NCBI GenBank assembly: GCA_035551395.1
Contig: DASZNB010000139.1
Coordinates: 1 to 37,801 of the forward strand
DNA: 37,801 nucleotides
Origin: Solirubrobacteraceae bacterium
GTDB lineage: Bacteria; Actinomycetota; Thermoleophilia; Solirubrobacterales; Solirubrobacteraceae
Reading direction: 5' to 3'
Part shown: piece after piece, positions 31,191 to 37,801 of the stretch
Numbering within the stretch: the stretch's first letter is position 1
How the letters are laid out: each line of letters opens with the position of its first letter
The notes under the pieces: model-generated
The model's input: the letters and a program-made list of their open reading frames with translations, nothing else
Told to the model about the DNA's origin: nothing
Databases searched by the model: none
Position numbers and translations under genes: made by a program

Positions 31191-31960
31191 GGTCGGCAAA
31201 CGGCGAGGAAGTCGAGCGCGCGCTCCAGATCGGCTTCGCCGGCCGCCCGCAGGCGGAAGTCCGTCGCGGCGATCGCCGGTGTGAACCAGTCGTAGAAGCG
31301 CGCCGTGAGGCCAAGCCGTTGGTGGACCCGGTCCCAACCGAGCCGCAATGCGAGCTCGTGCGCGCGCAGCTTGCGCGCGTGGAACAGCCCGTACAGCTCG
31401 ACCGAGGAGAAGTGCGCACGACAGAGCTGCTCGAACTCGCCGCGCCGGTACTCGTGGACATGCCAGGGATTGCCCGAGCGTGCCTCGCCGGGGGGCGCGA
31501 GCGTCAGCACGTTCGGAGTGGAGAGATAGACGGATCCGTCCCGGCCGACGATCGAGCTGAAGTGCTCCAGCACGGCGCCGGGCTCCTGCAGGTGCTCGAT
31601 CGTCTGCAGAAAGACGACGGCGTCGGCGGGCTCGGCGAAGCCGTCGACGAGGCCGCGCACGAAGCGCAGGCCGGGCCGCGCGTAGCGCAGGCGAGCGTGC
31701 TCATACGCCTCCGGGTTTGCGTCGACGCCCACCGTGTCTGCCCCCGCGCGTGCGAGAACCGCGGTGCCGTAGCCCTCACCGCACGCCATGTCGATCACAC
31801 GCAGGCCGCCGACGCGCTCGGCGATCCACTGATAGACGACGAGATGGCGCCGGTACCAGTAGTTCTCCGCGGGCACGTCTGGCAGTGTGCGCTCGCCCGT
31901 CAGCGCGAGCGGAGGGACGCCCTCGGGCTGGTCGCGCTGCACGAAGTTGGTCGAGGTCAA
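31187..31960 (-). CDS. Class I SAM methyltransferase (Rv3030-like)
   Basis: Motifs LTGERTLP...ENYWYRRHLVVY, CGEGYG, QTIEHL and STPN...NPWHVHE. The start may instead be GTG 31942. Confidence 0.9.
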   Translation of the reverse strand: MTSTNFVQRDQPEGVPPLALTGERTLPDVPAENYWYRRHLVVYQWIAERVGGLRVIDMACGEGYGTAVLARAGADTVGVDANPEAYEHARLRYARPGLRFVRGLVDGFAEPADAVVFLQTIEHLQEPGAVLEHFSSIVGRDGSVYLSTPNVLTLAPPGEARSGNPWHVHEYRRGEFEQLCRAHFSSVELYGLFHARKLRAHELALRLGWDRVHQRLGLTARFYDWFTPAIAATDFRLRAAGEADLERALDFLAVCRP

Positions 31961-32046
31961 GAGATCAGCCGTCTCGCATCGTCAGACGGTCGCAGCGAGT
32001 GCGCTGGAGGACGCGAGCACGGCGCGCGAGTATATGGTGCCGCCCC

Positions 32047-32961
32047 GTGCCGCCCGCCTTCAGCGCCGAGCAGATCCGTGACGCCAACGAGCGCTACCAC
32101 GACGTCGCGGCCGACCACTACGACTCCAAGTGGGGCATCGACTTCGGCGAGCTCGGCCTCAGCCAGGTGACGGCCAAGCTGGGCAAGGCACTCGGCGGCG
32201 AGCCCGGCCACTACGCGCGCTCGCTCGAGATCGGCGCGGGCACCGGCTACTTCAGCCTCAACCTGCTGCGCGCCGGCCTGATCGGCGAAGCGACCTGCAC
32301 CGATATCTCCCCGGGCATGCTGGAGACGCTGGCAGCGAACGCGCGCGCCCTCGATCTGCGCGTGCGCACCGAGCCCGCCGACGCCGAGCGCCTGCCGTTC
32401 GCCGACGAGAGCTTCGACCTCGTGCTCGGCCACGCCGTGCTGCATCACATCCCCGACCTGCCGCGCGCCTTCGCGGAGTTCCAGCGCGTCCTTGCGCCCG
32501 GCGGGACGCTTGCCTTCGCGGGCGAGCCCTCACGCTACGGCGACCGCCTGGCCGCCGTCCCCAAGCGTCTCGCCACCGCCGCCGCTCCGCTTTGGCGCCG
32601 AGCGATCGGGGCGGCGCGCGCCCCGCTGGGCGGCGCCTGCCGCCAGGCCGAGGGAGCACTCGAAGGCGTCGTGGACGTGCACGCCTTCGCACCCACGGAG
32701 CTCGTCCGCATCGCCCGCGGGGCGGGCTTCGAGGAGGTGCGTGTGAGCGGCGAGGAGCTGCTCGCCAACTGGTTCGGCTGGACCAATCGGACGCTCGAGT
32801 CCACCGCCGTTCCCGAGCAGGTGCCGTGGGCATGGCGGGTCTATGCCTACCGCGGCTATCTGATGCTGCAGGAGCTCGATCGCAGGCTGCTCGAGTCGCG
32901 CCTGCCGCCGGCGATCTTCTACAACCTGATGCTCGCCGCGCGCAAGCCAGCCGCGGCTTGA
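32047..32961 (+). CDS. Class I SAM methyltransferase (Rv3038c-like)
   Basis: Motifs YHD..A..YDSKWGI, LEIGAGTGYFSLNL, GHAVLHHIPD, FAGEP and VDVHAF.P. GTG 32047 lies 8 nt after TATGGT. Confidence 0.88.
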   Translation: MPPAFSAEQIRDANERYHDVAADHYDSKWGIDFGELGLSQVTAKLGKALGGEPGHYARSLEIGAGTGYFSLNLLRAGLIGEATCTDISPGMLETLAANARALDLRVRTEPADAERLPFADESFDLVLGHAVLHHIPDLPRAFAEFQRVLAPGGTLAFAGEPSRYGDRLAAVPKRLATAAAPLWRRAIGAARAPLGGACRQAEGALEGVVDVHAFAPTELVRIARGAGFEEVRVSGEELLANWFGWTNRTLESTAVPEQVPWAWRVYAYRGYLMLQELDRRLLESRLPPAIFYNLMLAARKPAAA

Positions 32962-32994
32962 GCCGCCTCGCGGGAGCGTCCTAGACTCACGGCG

Positions 32995-33636
32995 ATGAGC
33001 CAGCCGCCGCTCCGCAGCTTCCCGCTGTTCCCCCTCGACATCGTCGCGGTCCCGAGCGAGAGCGTGCCGCTGCACATCTTCGAGGAGCGCTACAAGCGCA
33101 TGATCGAGCGCTGCCTAGCGGCCGCGGAGGGCTCGCTCGAGCGTGAGTTCGGGATCGTCTGGCTGGCCGAGGATGAACTCAAGCCGGTCGGCTGCGCGTG
33201 TGCGATCGAGCAGCTCCTCGAGCGCCTCGACGACGGCCGGCTGAACGTCGTGGTGCAAGGCACGCGACCGTTCCGCCTGCTCGAGCGCCAGGACGATCTG
33301 CCTTACCCAGCCGGCGTCATCGAGTTCCTCGACGACGAGCCGGAGGACCCCGACGGCGAAGCGGCCGCCGCAGCGCGTTCGCTGTACCGCGAGCTCGTCC
33401 TGCAGGCCACCGATCGCGAGCTCGGGGACGACGAGCTCGCGCGCCTGGGCTCCTACGCGATGGCCGGCACGGTCGAGTTCGACGTCGCCGACAAGCAGCA
33501 GCTGCTCGAGCTTCGCGTCGAGAACGCCCGCATGCGGCTGCTGGCGCGTCTCTTGAAGGCGGCTCTCGAGCGCCTGGAGCTGCTCGAGCGCGCCCAGGTG
33601 CGAGCGCTCTCCAACGGCAAGGTCCGCCTGGCCTGA
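32995..33636 (+). CDS. Stand-alone Lon peptidase N-terminal (substrate-binding) domain protein
   Basis: Motifs PLFPL, PLHIFEERY..M, FGIV, DGR.N and KQQLLE....R. ATG lies 7 nt after TAGACT. Confidence 0.9.
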   Translation: MSQPPLRSFPLFPLDIVAVPSESVPLHIFEERYKRMIERCLAAAEGSLEREFGIVWLAEDELKPVGCACAIEQLLERLDDGRLNVVVQGTRPFRLLERQDDLPYPAGVIEFLDDEPEDPDGEAAAAARSLYRELVLQATDRELGDDELARLGSYAMAGTVEFDVADKQQLLELRVENARMRLLARLLKAALERLELLERAQVRALSNGKVRLA

Positions 33637-33704: not shown

Positions 33705-34142
33705 CTAGGACGCCGGCAGGTGACAGACCTCCTGTGCGACCTGCAGCACGAACAGCTGCAGGTGACGCAGCACGGCCGGCTGGGCGGCCGAGTTGTCGCT
33801 GAAGCGGACACTGCCGCTTTCGTCGCGCAGGGTGTAGGTGAAAATCGAGCCGGCCTTTGCCGGCAGCGAGAGCCGCTGGTCGGCGGCGTCGTGGATTTCT
33901 TCCTGGATCGCGCGCGCCTGCACGAGCTGTGGGTCGCTCAGCTTCAGAGTCGGGCCGCCGTTGCAGCGAACTGCGCCTTCTTCGTTGACGAGCAGCGTGA
34001 GCTGGGCGTGCGGCGTCGAGCCCGAGCGGCTCACCACGAACAGGTCGGCCGCGCGCACGCCCCCACATCCGGCGAGCGCAGCCAGTGCGAGGCCGGCCAC
34101 GGCAAGCGCCCTCGGGACAAGGCCCCCGTGGTCGGTGCTCAC
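33705..34142 (-). CDS. Hypothetical lipoprotein
   Basis: Signal peptide with lipobox LAGC. GTG start overlaps the ggt stop. Confidence 0.7.
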   Translation of the reverse strand: MSTDHGGLVPRALAVAGLALAALAGCGGVRAADLFVVSRSGSTPHAQLTLLVNEEGAVRCNGGPTLKLSDPQLVQARAIQEEIHDAADQRLSLPAKAGSIFTYTLRDESGSVRFSDNSAAQPAVLRHLQLFVLQVAQEVCHLPAS

Positions 34143-35611
34143 GTGCTCACCGCCACGCCGCCGCGGCGTGGATCGCCGGCCCCGCTGAGCTTGCCGTCGC
34201 GTCTCAGCGCAGCCTGGACGCCGCCGAAGAACAGGTTGCGCGCAGCGAACGCCACGACGCGCTCGGCGCCGCCGAGCTCGCCCAGCTCGATGCCGGGCTC
34301 AGCGAAGACGACGCCATCCTCGTAGTGGATCCGCGCCGCGTCGACGGCGGCCTGGGCCTCCATGCCGTGATCGACCGCTGCGACGATCGTCTGCAGCAGA
34401 GCCGAGCGAATGCGGTTCGAGCCGGCGCTGCCCAGGACCAGCTCGACCTCGCCGTCACGCAAGACGATCGAGGGAGCCATCATGCTCGGCATCCTGCGCC
34501 CCGCAGGATGCCGATGAAAGCCAAGCGGGTTGAGGTCCTCCTCCCCCATCACGTTGTTGAGGTGAATCCCCGTCCCCGGCACGACCACGCCCGAGCCCTC
34601 GCCGTTGGTACACGTGGTGCTGCAGGCGCGCCCCTCGCCGTCGATCACCGAGATGTGCGTCGTCGAGCCCAGGCGACTGGCGAGGAAGCGCTCGAGGAAG
34701 CGCTCCTCCTCGAGGCCTTCGACGAACTCCGGCGTGCGCTCGGACTGCGCCGCGGCCATCGCCGCCAGGATGCCCCGCAGGCTCGGCGGCGCGGGTTCGC
34801 GATTCAGCAGCGCGAGCGCGTACGCGAGCAGCGTTCCCCCGGCCGACGGCGGCGGGTTGGTGAGGATCTCGCGGTCGCGGTAGACGACGAGGACGGGCTC
34901 GCGTTCCACCGCGCGGTAGCCGGCGAGGTCCGCCGGCGTGAGCGATCCCCCGCGCTCGCCCAGCCATTCACACACCGCCGCCGCAACGTCGCCCCAGTAG
35001 AACGGCTCGGGGCCCTCGCGGGCAAGTCGCATCAGCGCATCGCCGAGCTCGGGGTTCACGAGCATCTCACCCTCGCGCAGGATCCGTCCCCGCGGCGCCC
35101 ACAGGGCGGCACACTCCGCCGTCGAGGTCAAGAGCGTCGCGAGGATCTCCGCCACATATGCCTGGCCGGCGTTGAGCACGACCCCGTCGCGGGCGAGCCC
35201 TGCGGCCGGCTCGGCGAGCTCCTCGAGAGACATGGTGCCCCAGCGGCGCGCGGCCTCGCACACGCCGGCGGGGGCGCCGTAGACGCCGCAGGACGCGGGA
35301 CCGATGTGGAAGCGCTGGGCGGCGTCCCCGAATGAGACATCGACGCCGAGCAGCTCCGCCTCCGAGCCGTCGCCCACACGCGTGGGCGCCTGCACGAAGA
35401 AGTCGAGCAGCGCGGGCGACACCCCGCCTCCCGCCACGAGCATGTGGCCGCCCGCGCCGAGCCCGGTCAGCAGCGGCTCGGCGACGAACGACGTGAGCAT
35501 CGCCGCGACGGCCGCGTCCACCGCATTGCCGCCTTCGCGCAGAACCCGCGCCCCCGCCTGCGCGGTCAGCGGATGGCCCGCTGCGACCACGCCCTTGCCT
35601 TCACCCATCAC
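34139..35611 (-). CDS. ggt: Gamma-glutamyltransferase family protein
   Basis: Motifs GGNAVDAAVA, GLGAGG, STTHISVID (Thr nucleophile), SMMAP, GSAGS and DPRRGG. Confidence 0.92.
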   Translation of the reverse strand: MMGEGKGVVAAGHPLTAQAGARVLREGGNAVDAAVAAMLTSFVAEPLLTGLGAGGHMLVAGGGVSPALLDFFVQAPTRVGDGSEAELLGVDVSFGDAAQRFHIGPASCGVYGAPAGVCEAARRWGTMSLEELAEPAAGLARDGVVLNAGQAYVAEILATLLTSTAECAALWAPRGRILREGEMLVNPELGDALMRLAREGPEPFYWGDVAAAVCEWLGERGGSLTPADLAGYRAVEREPVLVVYRDREILTNPPPSAGGTLLAYALALLNREPAPPSLRGILAAMAAAQSERTPEFVEGLEEERFLERFLASRLGSTTHISVIDGEGRACSTTCTNGEGSGVVVPGTGIHLNNVMGEEDLNPLGFHRHPAGRRMPSMMAPSIVLRDGEVELVLGSAGSNRIRSALLQTIVAAVDHGMEAQAAVDAARIHYEDGVVFAEPGIELGELGGAERVVAFAARNLFFGGVQAALRRDGKLSGAGDPRRGGVAVST

Positions 35612-35661
35612 AGAGCGATACCACAGGAGCGCCGCTGAGCGGCGTGCCGGCGCGCGTCAGT

Positions 35662-37104
35662 TCAGAAATTAGGCAAAAACTCGGGCACGTCTAGTTCGTC
35701 GACGGCCAGCCCGCCACGACGAGGCTCGCGGCTCGGCCGCGACGGCGTGGCGCGCTGGACGCGGACCTCGCCGGTCGTGGCTGGCTCTTTCAGGCGGCCG
35801 AGGCTCTTGCGCCTGCCCTCGTCGCCATAGCCGGTCGCGACGACCGTCACCCACACCTGGTCGTCGAGCTTGTCGTCGACCATCGCGCCGAAGATGATGT
35901 TCGCGTCCGGGTGCGCGGCCTCCGAGACGGACTTCGCGGCCTCGTTGACCTCCCACAGCGAGAGGTTGGGGCCGCCCGTGATCGACAGCAGGATCGAGCG
36001 TGCGCCGTCCATCGAGGTTTCCAACAGCGGCGAGGAGACGGCCTGGATGGCCGCCTCGGTGGCCCGGTTCTCGCCGATGCCCATGCCGATCCCGAGCAGG
36101 GCGTTGCCGGCATCGCTCATGATCGTGCGCACGTCGGCGAAGTCGAGGTTGATGAGACCGGGCAGGGTCACGAGATCGGAGATGCCCTGCACGCCCTGGC
36201 GCAGCACGTCGTCGGCGACACGAAAGGCCTCCACCATCGCGGTCTGCTTGTCGAGCACGCCGAGCAGCCTGTCGTTCGGCACGACAATTAGGGTGTCGAC
36301 CTCCTCTGCCAGCGCGCCGACGCCGTGGTCGGCCTGCTCGCCACGGCGAGACCCCTCGAAGCCGAACGGCTTCGTCACGATCGCGACCGTCAGAGCGCCG
36401 ACTTCGCGGGCGATCCGAGCGACCACCGGGGCAGCGCCGGTGCCGGTGCCGCCGCCGGCGCCGGCCGCGATGAAGATCATGTCCGAGCCCTTCAGCAGCG
36501 CCTTCATGCGGTCGTAGTCCTCCATCGCCGCCTGGCGGCCGATATTGGCGTCCGAGCCCGAGCCGAGACCGCGGGTGAGCTCGGCGCCGATGTGCAGCGT
36601 GAGGTCGGCGGTCGACTGCTGGAGCGATTGCAGGTCCGTGTTGACGGCGAGGAACTCGATCCCCTCGACCTCAGCCTCGACCATGCGGTTGACCGCGTTG
36701 ACGCCCGCGCCGCCGACGCCGACGACGCGAATGATCGGCCGGCCGACGGTCCCCGGCGCGGAGGCGGCGTGATCGCGCGGGTAGTCCGCGAGCGCCGAAT
36801 GCCGGACGGGGCGCTCGAGCACGTCCTCGGGGATCTCCGAGGAGAAGGCGTGGCGCAGACGCTCCTGCGGCGAGGGCACGCGGACCTCCTGCTCCGGCGT
36901 GCGCTGGGAGGCGGCGAGCGCCGGGTGCGGCAGCCCGCTCTCGCGCGGGTGGGTCGGCGGTGGCGCGGACGGCTCGACCGGCTGGGTCGCCGCGGCCTCG
37001 GCCTCGGCGGGCTCCTGTGTGGGCTCGCCCTCGCCACCTTCGGTCTTGCGGAAGAGTGCCGCCAGGGGTCCTTCGCGCATGCTCGCGCGCTTAGCGTTTG
37101 CCAT
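35662..37104 (-). CDS. ftsZ: Cell division protein FtsZ with an N-terminal extension of about 120 aa
   Basis: Motifs VVGVGGAGVNAVNRM, NTD.Q.L, GGGTGTG, PF.FEG, GLINLDFAD and C-terminal peptide LDVPEFL. ATG 37104 follows SD AGGAGG, which lies inside parA. Confidence 0.96.
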   Translation of the reverse strand: MANAKRASMREGPLAALFRKTEGGEGEPTQEPAEAEAAATQPVEPSAPPPTHPRESGLPHPALAASQRTPEQEVRVPSPQERLRHAFSSEIPEDVLERPVRHSALADYPRDHAASAPGTVGRPIIRVVGVGGAGVNAVNRMVEAEVEGIEFLAVNTDLQSLQQSTADLTLHIGAELTRGLGSGSDANIGRQAAMEDYDRMKALLKGSDMIFIAAGAGGGTGTGAAPVVARIAREVGALTVAIVTKPFGFEGSRRGEQADHGVGALAEEVDTLIVVPNDRLLGVLDKQTAMVEAFRVADDVLRQGVQGISDLVTLPGLINLDFADVRTIMSDAGNALLGIGMGIGENRATEAAIQAVSSPLLETSMDGARSILLSITGGPNLSLWEVNEAAKSVSEAAHPDANIIFGAMVDDKLDDQVWVTVVATGYGDEGRRKSLGRLKEPATTGEVRVQRATPSRPSREPRRGGLAVDELDVPEFLPNF

Positions 37105-37801
37105 GGGTGAGAACCTCCTGCGCGAGTTGTCGGTAGGACTGGGCCGCGACACCGTCGGGCTCGTACTTGAGGACCGACATGCCCTTCACGGGAGCCTCGG
37201 CGAAGCGGACGGTCTTACGGATGCGGGAGGCAAAGACGCGGTCGCCGAAGTTTTCCTCGAGGATCTCGATGGCCTCCTTGGCGTGGATCGTGCGCGAATC
37301 CACCAACGTCGGGAGGATACCCTCGATGTCGACGCCGGGGTTGAGATTCTCACGAATCATCGCGAGCGTGTTCTGCAGTTGGATCAGGCCACGCATGGAT
37401 AGATACTCGCATTGCACGGGGACGATCACCTTGTCGGCTGCCGTGAGCGCGTTGATCGTCAGCAGCCCGAGGCTCGGCGGCGTGTCGATGCAGATGAAGT
37501 CGTAGTCGTCGAGGATCGGTTCGAAGGCCTTCTGCAGCGAGCGCTCGCGCCCGATCATCGTCGACATCGCGATCTCGGCGCCGGCGAGGTCGATCGAAGC
37601 GCACGCGACATCGATCTCGCGCTTGCGGATCACCTCGCGGACGGAGACCTTGTGCACGAGCACGTCGTACATCGATTTCTCGAGCGTGTCGGGGTCGATC
37701 CCCTGCGACATCGTCAGGTTGCCTTGCGGGTCCATGTCGACGCACAGCACGCGGTGGCCCTCCTCGGCGAATGCGGCCGCGAGGTTCAGCGTCGTCGTCG
37801 T
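37091..37801 (-). CDS. ParA/Soj-family ATPase (5' end outside the window)
   Basis: Frame is open to the window edge: TTTLNLAAA..VLCVDMDPQGN, DLAGAE, IDTPPSLG, PVQCEY and TVRFAEAP. Its stop overlaps the ftsZ start by 14 bp. Confidence 0.93.
   Translation of the reverse strand, partial: TTTTLNLAAAFAEEGHRVLCVDMDPQGNLTMSQGIDPDTLEKSMYDVLVHKVSVREVIRKREIDVACASIDLAGAEIAMSTMIGRERSLQKAFEPILDDYDFICIDTPPSLGLLTINALTAADKVIVPVQCEYLSMRGLIQLQNTLAMIRENLNPGVDIEGILPTLVDSRTIHAKEAIEILEENFGDRVFASRIRKTVRFAEAPVKGMSVLKYEPDGVAAQSYRQLAQEVLTHGKR

Follow-up and report, generated by a model that had tools for sequence, protein, structure and literature searches.

In ParA/MinD systems, the partner protein generally acts on the ATPase through a positively charged, disordered N terminus, and the rest of the protein holds the cargo (PMC10241942, PMC7993993); the tail of ParG, for example, stimulates ParF (PMC7308502). 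We describe here a candidate system of this kind in which the cargo is FtsZ, from contig DASZNB010000139.1 (C139) of a Solirubrobacteraceae bacterium (GenBank assembly GCA_035551395.1; 55% complete, 71% GC), the whole of which, 37,801 nucleotides, is called the window below. On its minus strand, the gene for an orphan ParA ATPase runs into a gene for a second FtsZ paralogue, FtsZ2, with an N-terminal arm that begins with a conserved peptide (the tip). On balance, we consider it probable from sequence comparison that FtsZ has acquired a ParA-engaging peptide in the form of the tip and that nucleoid-bound ParA positions FtsZ2 and thereby the division site. The scheme of an ATPase and an activating peptide is known; FtsZ as the peptide-bearing partner did not turn up in the literature searched.

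In the PomXYZ system of Myxococcus xanthus, PomX and PomY are separate adaptors (PMC7993993), whereas in the window the FtsZ paralogue itself bears the candidate peptide and no adaptor gene is linked. In ParF-ParG, a flexible N-terminal tail engages ParA, and a small partner protein of other actinobacterial ParAs, described below, shares this layout of a tail and a ribbon-helix-helix (RHH) domain; unlike ParG and other RHH partners, FtsZ2 has FtsZ rather than a DNA-binding RHH as its cargo domain, and there is no centromere (PMC7308502). PldP of Corynebacterium, Rv1708/MSMEG_3743, and SCO1772 are likewise orphan ParAs that exist beside a separate parAB and keep the DNA-binding basic residues; PldP is reported to be present at division sites, and minicells arise when it is lost (PMC3989709, PMC10482377, PMC4255298). 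ParAs of this type differ from that of the window in being linked to scpAB or to a small RHH gene and not to ftsZ, in belonging to a different clade, and in having sampled hosts with one FtsZ match. Archaea and chloroplasts also have two FtsZ paralogues, likely with a division of labor, but in the dual-FtsZ literature listed, none is both coupled to a ParA and equipped with a partner tip, and both copies are here bacterial-type FtsZ. The ParA-FtsZ2 pairing was absent from the literature searched, with most subscription journals and all supplements outside that search.

How actinobacteria place the septum in the absence of Min or Noc is described as an open question (PMC3989709). The parA-ftsZ2 module is a two-protein candidate for such placement and, if FtsZ2 reads a ParA gradient as proposed below, would connect chromosome position to Z-ring placement by the shortest route known, class-wide since the last common ancestor.

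The parA-ftsZ2 pair in Thermoleophilia

The features of the locus are as follows (window coordinates):
37091..37801, minus strand: ParA/Soj-family orphan ATPase (AAA_31 match), truncated at the 5' end by the edge of the contig
37114..37120, minus strand: CAGGAGG, Shine-Dalgarno-like, within parA codons Gln-Glu-Val, 9-nucleotide spacer ttctcaccc before the ftsZ2 ATG
37091..37104, minus strand: parA/ftsZ2 overlap of 14 bp, translational coupling likely
35662..37104, minus strand: ftsZ2, 480 residues, second FtsZ paralogue with N-terminal arm
37042..37092, minus strand: conserved N-terminal tip KRASMREGPLAALFRKT, residues 5-21, predicted ParA-engaging peptide
36736..37041, minus strand: Pro/Ala/Glu-rich variable linker, low confidence in AlphaFold2, disorder likely
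35827..36735, minus strand: FtsZ GTPase core, GGGTGTG at residue 217 and T7 loop NLDFAD at residue 319, both intact
35674..35694, minus strand: C-terminal FtsZ anchor peptide DVPEFL, residue 472
34139..35611, minus strand: ggt (gamma-glutamyltransferase, PF01019), downstream neighbor

An earlier, sequence-only reading of the window had described parA as ending 14 bp inside ftsZ, as supplying the Shine-Dalgarno sequence of ftsZ, and as having no partner gene between or after the two before ggt. All of this was borne out, with the parA stop codon at 37093-37091, the ftsZ2 ATG at 37104-37102, and the putative ribosome-binding site placed as listed. The 14-bp offset is identical in 64 of the 74 family loci that carry the tip motif. 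The overlap in itself is nothing special and marks the partner slot rather than a unique trait: like offsets from the parA stop (-8, -17, -4, and others) are seen for the starts of ParB and of the small protein that partners ParH-type ParAs.

The upstream side of parA, cut off in the window, could be judged from elsewhere. Contig C90 carries a near-identical version of the 5' end of parA (93% nucleotide identity over 158 bp), which is a strain variant with no exact join to the window. Because a divergent gene for an ArsA-type ATPase lies upstream of parA on C90 and in 75/80 family-level loci, no partner gene is hidden outside the window, and no same-strand partner gene was found just upstream of parA on C90 or in the 80 family loci. 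Elsewhere in the class, the genes upstream of parA vary.

The closest relatives of the window ParA belong to Solirubrobacteraceae or Solirubrobacterales, of the class Thermoleophilia according to NCBI. The synteny survey that the sequence-only reading had proposed was made with 120 Thermoleophilia genomes, each at least 90% complete, at a ParA match threshold of E<=1e-55. One match to the window-type ParA was present in 116 of them, and ftsZ2 lies directly behind parA in all 116 (seen in the retrieved DNA for 63 and deduced from the coordinates of the matches for 53); the FtsZ core is visible in 115, the contig of the remaining genome ending after the tip. Because it is present in every class genome with this ParA, the adjacency is not due to chance. 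The four genomes without the ParA also account for all those in which FtsZ was matched only once, and in the one examined, the contig breaks off at the expected start of the operon, an assembly gap. In an order-level sample, parA is directly upstream of ftsZ2 in 28/30 loci, and the other two begin at a contig end. The module is therefore class-wide and kept across Thermoleophilia, which are soil actinobacteria. Members of this class retain two FtsZ paralogues, whereas 134 of 140 actinobacterial genomes from outside it (seven of them flagged as unpublished) have a single FtsZ match; the others comprise one with none, one with FtsZ split across contigs, and four with a tandem ftsZ-ftsZ arrangement. 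The tandem copies characterize family f40 (4/4 genomes; L117-L120, L122-L125; L, G, C, and f are our handles for loci, genomes, contigs, and families), and each forms its own long-branch clade apart from that of FtsZ2.

The FtsZ of the window scores 403.6 bits against the TIGR00065 ftsZ model (equivalog cut-off, 295.2 bits) but is not the housekeeping FtsZ of the division and cell wall (dcw) cluster. A second, short FtsZ is encoded on contig C51 of the same genome, with 61% identity over the core and its upstream context cut off, and the short copy of relatives follows mur genes in 7/7 loci scanned (of 12 fetched). A quick tree of 75 FtsZ cores unites the 30 ParA-coupled copies in a single clade, separate from the short dcw copy and with families together (Shimodaira-Hasegawa-like approximate likelihood ratio test [SH-aLRT], 86, unstarred), a pattern that fits vertical descent from a class ancestor. 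The window ftsZ is thus a paralogue. The earlier suggestion that FtsZ itself occupies the partner slot is consequently half right: the slot and a partner-like N-terminal peptide are there, but the occupant is the second paralogue and the dcw FtsZ lies elsewhere, so any effect of ParA on the main ring would be indirect, by way of FtsZ2.

Most FtsZ2 proteins retain the C-terminal anchor peptide, which in the DVPEFL form is presumably of the kind bound by SepF or FtsA. SepF was present in all five genomes searched (two genes in G042 of family f8, one in each of the other four). FtsA scored above the cut-off in none of five genomes searched, and MinC (MinC_C) was not found in 5/5 genomes, in a search that matched 6/14 controls. 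In the one family f11 locus scanned, ftsA adjoins ftsZ1, the dcw copy.

The window ParA matches AAA_31 (E, 1e-50). Full-length relatives have the deviant Walker A motif KGGVAKT, with K12, A16, and K17 invariant in 34/34 sequences, and Walker B is present. In 34/34 sequences, R187 and K213 are invariant and residue 216 is R or K, at the positions of nonspecific DNA binding in Soj (R189 and R218 in Bacillus subtilis Soj) as aligned to solved ParA structures. Identity with MinD was rejected: the 5'-truncated protein scores 36.9 bits against minD_bact (cut-off, 212.9 bits) and is without a membrane-targeting tail, ending in EVLTHGKR with no MinD-like C-terminal extension. Identity with chromosomal Soj was also rejected. 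The separate parAB for which a check had been recommended was found in 5/5 complete genomes, and the Soj clade (SH-aLRT, 99) excludes the coupled ParA, which is 63-85% identical in six genome pairs, compared to 54-65% for Soj.

Three quick ParA trees gave four clades, all with good SH-aLRT support: Soj, an scpAB-linked clade, a third clade with KGGVAKT, and the FtsZ2-coupled ParA. The scpAB-linked clade was read as PldP/Rv1708/ParH from scpAB and ald synteny. The DSRT, KTVRF, and CEYLSMRGL segments highlighted in the sequence-only reading are present, but its assignment of the window ParA to the PldP/Rv1708/ParH class was not supported: the coupled ParA forms its own clade (SH-aLRT, 99) outside the scpAB-linked one (93-97), and DSRT and TVRF occur also in the third clade, which contains a close match to PDB 4PFS. 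In that clade, parA overlaps by 4 bp a gene for a zinc-ribbon-like protein of ~80-100 residues with two CxxC pairs (L096:2842-3084, L097:2967-3209, L098:3830-4126, L099:3749-3985).

A divergent orphan ParA, 38% identical, was also seen (L003; G000 C114:25808-26584), behind a gene that by eye resembles one for an FHA-domain protein; the neighbor had no Pfam match at 1e-5, and no parB adjoins.

The FtsZ2 tip and its counterparts

The window FtsZ2 matches the layout of a ParA activator: a positive N-terminal peptide (net charge of +4 over residues 1-21), a disordered arm, and a gene directly behind that of the ATPase. In AlphaFold2, the core is folded, residues 1-120 are of low confidence, and most of the arm has a predicted local distance difference test (pLDDT) value of <60. 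The tip consensus is K/R-R-A-S-M-R-E-G-P-L-x-x-L-F-R-x-T, with S8, L14, L17, and F18 invariant in 35 aligned sequences. A strict tip pattern, which itself fixes several of the residues counted, was matched in 74/80 family loci; the tip lies further downstream in four of the other six and is variant in one and truncated in one. Linker length varies from 76 to 178 residues within the family, and the distance from tip to core ranges from 27 to 145 residues across the class. Synonymous tip codons vary freely in family loci (Ser is encoded by both AGY and TCN). The tip is thus conserved as a protein sequence, and the adjoining linker drifts freely.

A similar peptide occurs on a different protein outside the class. 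In other actinobacterial classes, a gene for a protein of ~115-190 residues that starts with RASLPGADELFRxT lies behind that of the best-scoring ParA, and the two often overlap to a similar extent. This small partner has a conserved tip, a variable linker, and an RHH-like domain and belongs to no Pfam family (L065:2210-2572, L069:2286-2627, L101:2758-3333, and kin). Its predicted fold is a disordered tail and an RHH-like C-terminal domain (VIA-align Z of 4-6; best, 6.1), and this Z score being the evidence, the RHH assignment is a modest one; Foldseek returned nothing for it at E<=0.001. The small partner lies directly behind a ParH/PldP-type parA in 39/140 outside genomes (34/133 when the unpublished genomes are left aside) and was found in 0/120 Thermoleophilia genomes. 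It is a probable activator of that ATPase.

The two tips were compared by scoring profiles against 2,706 background N termini. With the FtsZ2 tip profile, 17/17 small-partner N termini exceeded the 99th percentile and 11/17 exceeded the background maximum; with the reverse profile, built from the small partner, the corresponding values for FtsZ2 tips were 27/36 and 20/36. Homology of the two tips is suggested as a good lead rather than proof. The likeness also singles out the RHH gene that follows ParH-type ATPases, itself unstudied, as encoding their probable activator, which makes it a lead in Streptomyces and its allies.

A ParB-like character of the tip was not supported at the sequence level, 0/9 ParB N termini exceeding the 99th percentile in either profile direction. 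The tip was also sought on other domains. In 245 proteins from two ranked lists (the top 120 of 262 matches and the top 150 of 1,099), FtsZ core motifs were present in 21, and the 20 longest of the others read as fragments, frameshifts, or chimeras of FtsZ2; the RHH profile found no match among the 245, and these top-ranked entries included no family with the tip as a stand-alone protein. Complex prediction with a ParA dimer (from the close relative L151), ATP, Mg, and the 36-residue tip of the window gave a score of 0.00 in two runs, with controls not folded; this is evidence neither way.

Candidate mechanism and competing explanations

Direct contact between ParA and the tip appears quite likely. 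ATP-bound ParA dimers would coat the nucleoid via their conserved basic residues, and the FtsZ2 tip would dock on a ParA dimer and, like the ParG and PomX tails, trigger ATP hydrolysis, with release of ParA from the nucleoid. FtsZ2 polymers, which would bear many tips and be tethered via the C-terminal peptide (SepF being present), could clear ParA locally and settle where the ParA flux balances, over the nucleoid center or between sister nucleoids, and there FtsZ2 may co-polymerize with or nucleate FtsZ1. The fuller proposal, in which FtsZ2 would be both activator and cargo of its own ParA motor, its fused tip reading the nucleoid ParA gradient without an adaptor, is evenly poised. With regard to origin, the likely event is replacement of the RHH domain of an ancestral ParA-partner gene by an FtsZ copy. 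A graft from a ParH-type ancestor would be allowed but is not shown; the approximately unbiased (AU) test rejects neither a grouping of the coupled ParA with the ParH-type clade (P = 0.38) nor one with Soj (P = 0.21).

Several points weigh against positioning of the division site by a grafted tip. The tip-likeness scores are low (median, 8-10 bits) and come from sequences related to each other. The coupled ParA falls outside the ParH/PldP clade, the one with the partner that bears the similar tip, and is nearer to the third KGGVAKT clade in two quick trees (SH-aLRT, 90 and 82; the third tree gives no grouping), where the zinc-ribbon partners do not match the FtsZ2 tip (0/4). On the FtsZ side, the Ala of the T3 loop is replaced by S, G, or T in 27/29 FtsZ2 proteins (GLGSG in place of GLGAG in the window) and retained in 33/33 others. 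FtsZ2 also evolves faster, with a mean identity across eight genomes of 61.5%, versus 74.7% for FtsZ1. In family f7 (L034-L038), whose FtsZ2 proteins have longer acidic tails and a short N-terminal linker (31-35 residues), the anchor peptide is missing in 5/5. The divergence, the T3 change, and the loss of the anchor in f7 would fit a role other than ring nucleation, and the sign of the effect on division, positive or negative, is not readable from sequence.

In one alternative, the module is a negative regulator: ParA would keep FtsZ2 on the nucleoid, and FtsZ2 would cap or poison FtsZ1 filaments there, in a manner like nucleoid occlusion or MipZ. The altered T3 loop, the faster evolution, the lost anchor in f7, and the failure to find MinC in the five genomes searched favor such a role, but FtsZ2 has an intact GTP-binding motif and T7 catalytic loop, as for a polymerizing FtsZ, and most FtsZ2 proteins keep the anchor peptide of a membrane-tethered FtsZ. 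We regard negative regulation as unlikely.

TubZ and CetZ are FtsZ-like filaments of other lineages that do not function in division. By comparison, ParA could move an FtsZ2 cytoskeleton that serves origin anchoring, cell shape, or polarity. The divergence of FtsZ2 from FtsZ1 and the one family without an anchor peptide would accord with this, as would family f11, in which the parA-ftsZ2 operon (L049, L050, L051, L060, and L062) is divergent from dnaA-dnaN in 16/16 genomes with the ParA, with DnaA boxes in the gap and parB elsewhere (5/5). However, the dnaA linkage is confined to f11, FtsZ2 scores above the ftsZ equivalog cut-off and is ~62% identical to FtsZ1, no DNA-binding adaptor is linked, and a separate parAB already exists, making a nondivision filament improbable. 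The most doubtful alternative is that ParA and FtsZ2 make no contact, the tip being left over from an older partner gene or binding another protein and the operon merely co-regulating the two: comparable overlaps are common behind parA genes and the tip-likeness scores are low, but the tip is conserved class-wide at the protein level beside a freely drifting linker, parA and ftsZ2 are uncoupled in 0/116 genomes, and the gene order survives duplication of the junction.

Junction and neighborhood

Duplications at the junction include an AT-rich insert (L175:3198-3380) and, in L202, L210, L212, and L230, ParA C-terminal extensions that end in a repeated EVxAxG unit near the parA 3' end. The tip and the gene order are retained at duplicated junctions wherever the locus extends far enough to show them. 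No promoter or terminator consensus was found in 35400-37801. Among the pieces listed, RNA contigs of relatives span the parA-ftsZ2 junction in 2/4 runs, which contained only small shares of the sequence; a single transcript is not thereby proven.

The gene that follows ftsZ2 was correctly recognized as ggt in the sequence-only reading. It lies behind ftsZ2 in 61/80 family loci but in only 4/20 class loci and is outside the parA-ftsZ2 module. Beyond ggt, on the plus strand (31717-33636), the window encodes a class I S-adenosylmethionine (SAM) methyltransferase and, behind it, a protein with a LON substrate-binding domain.

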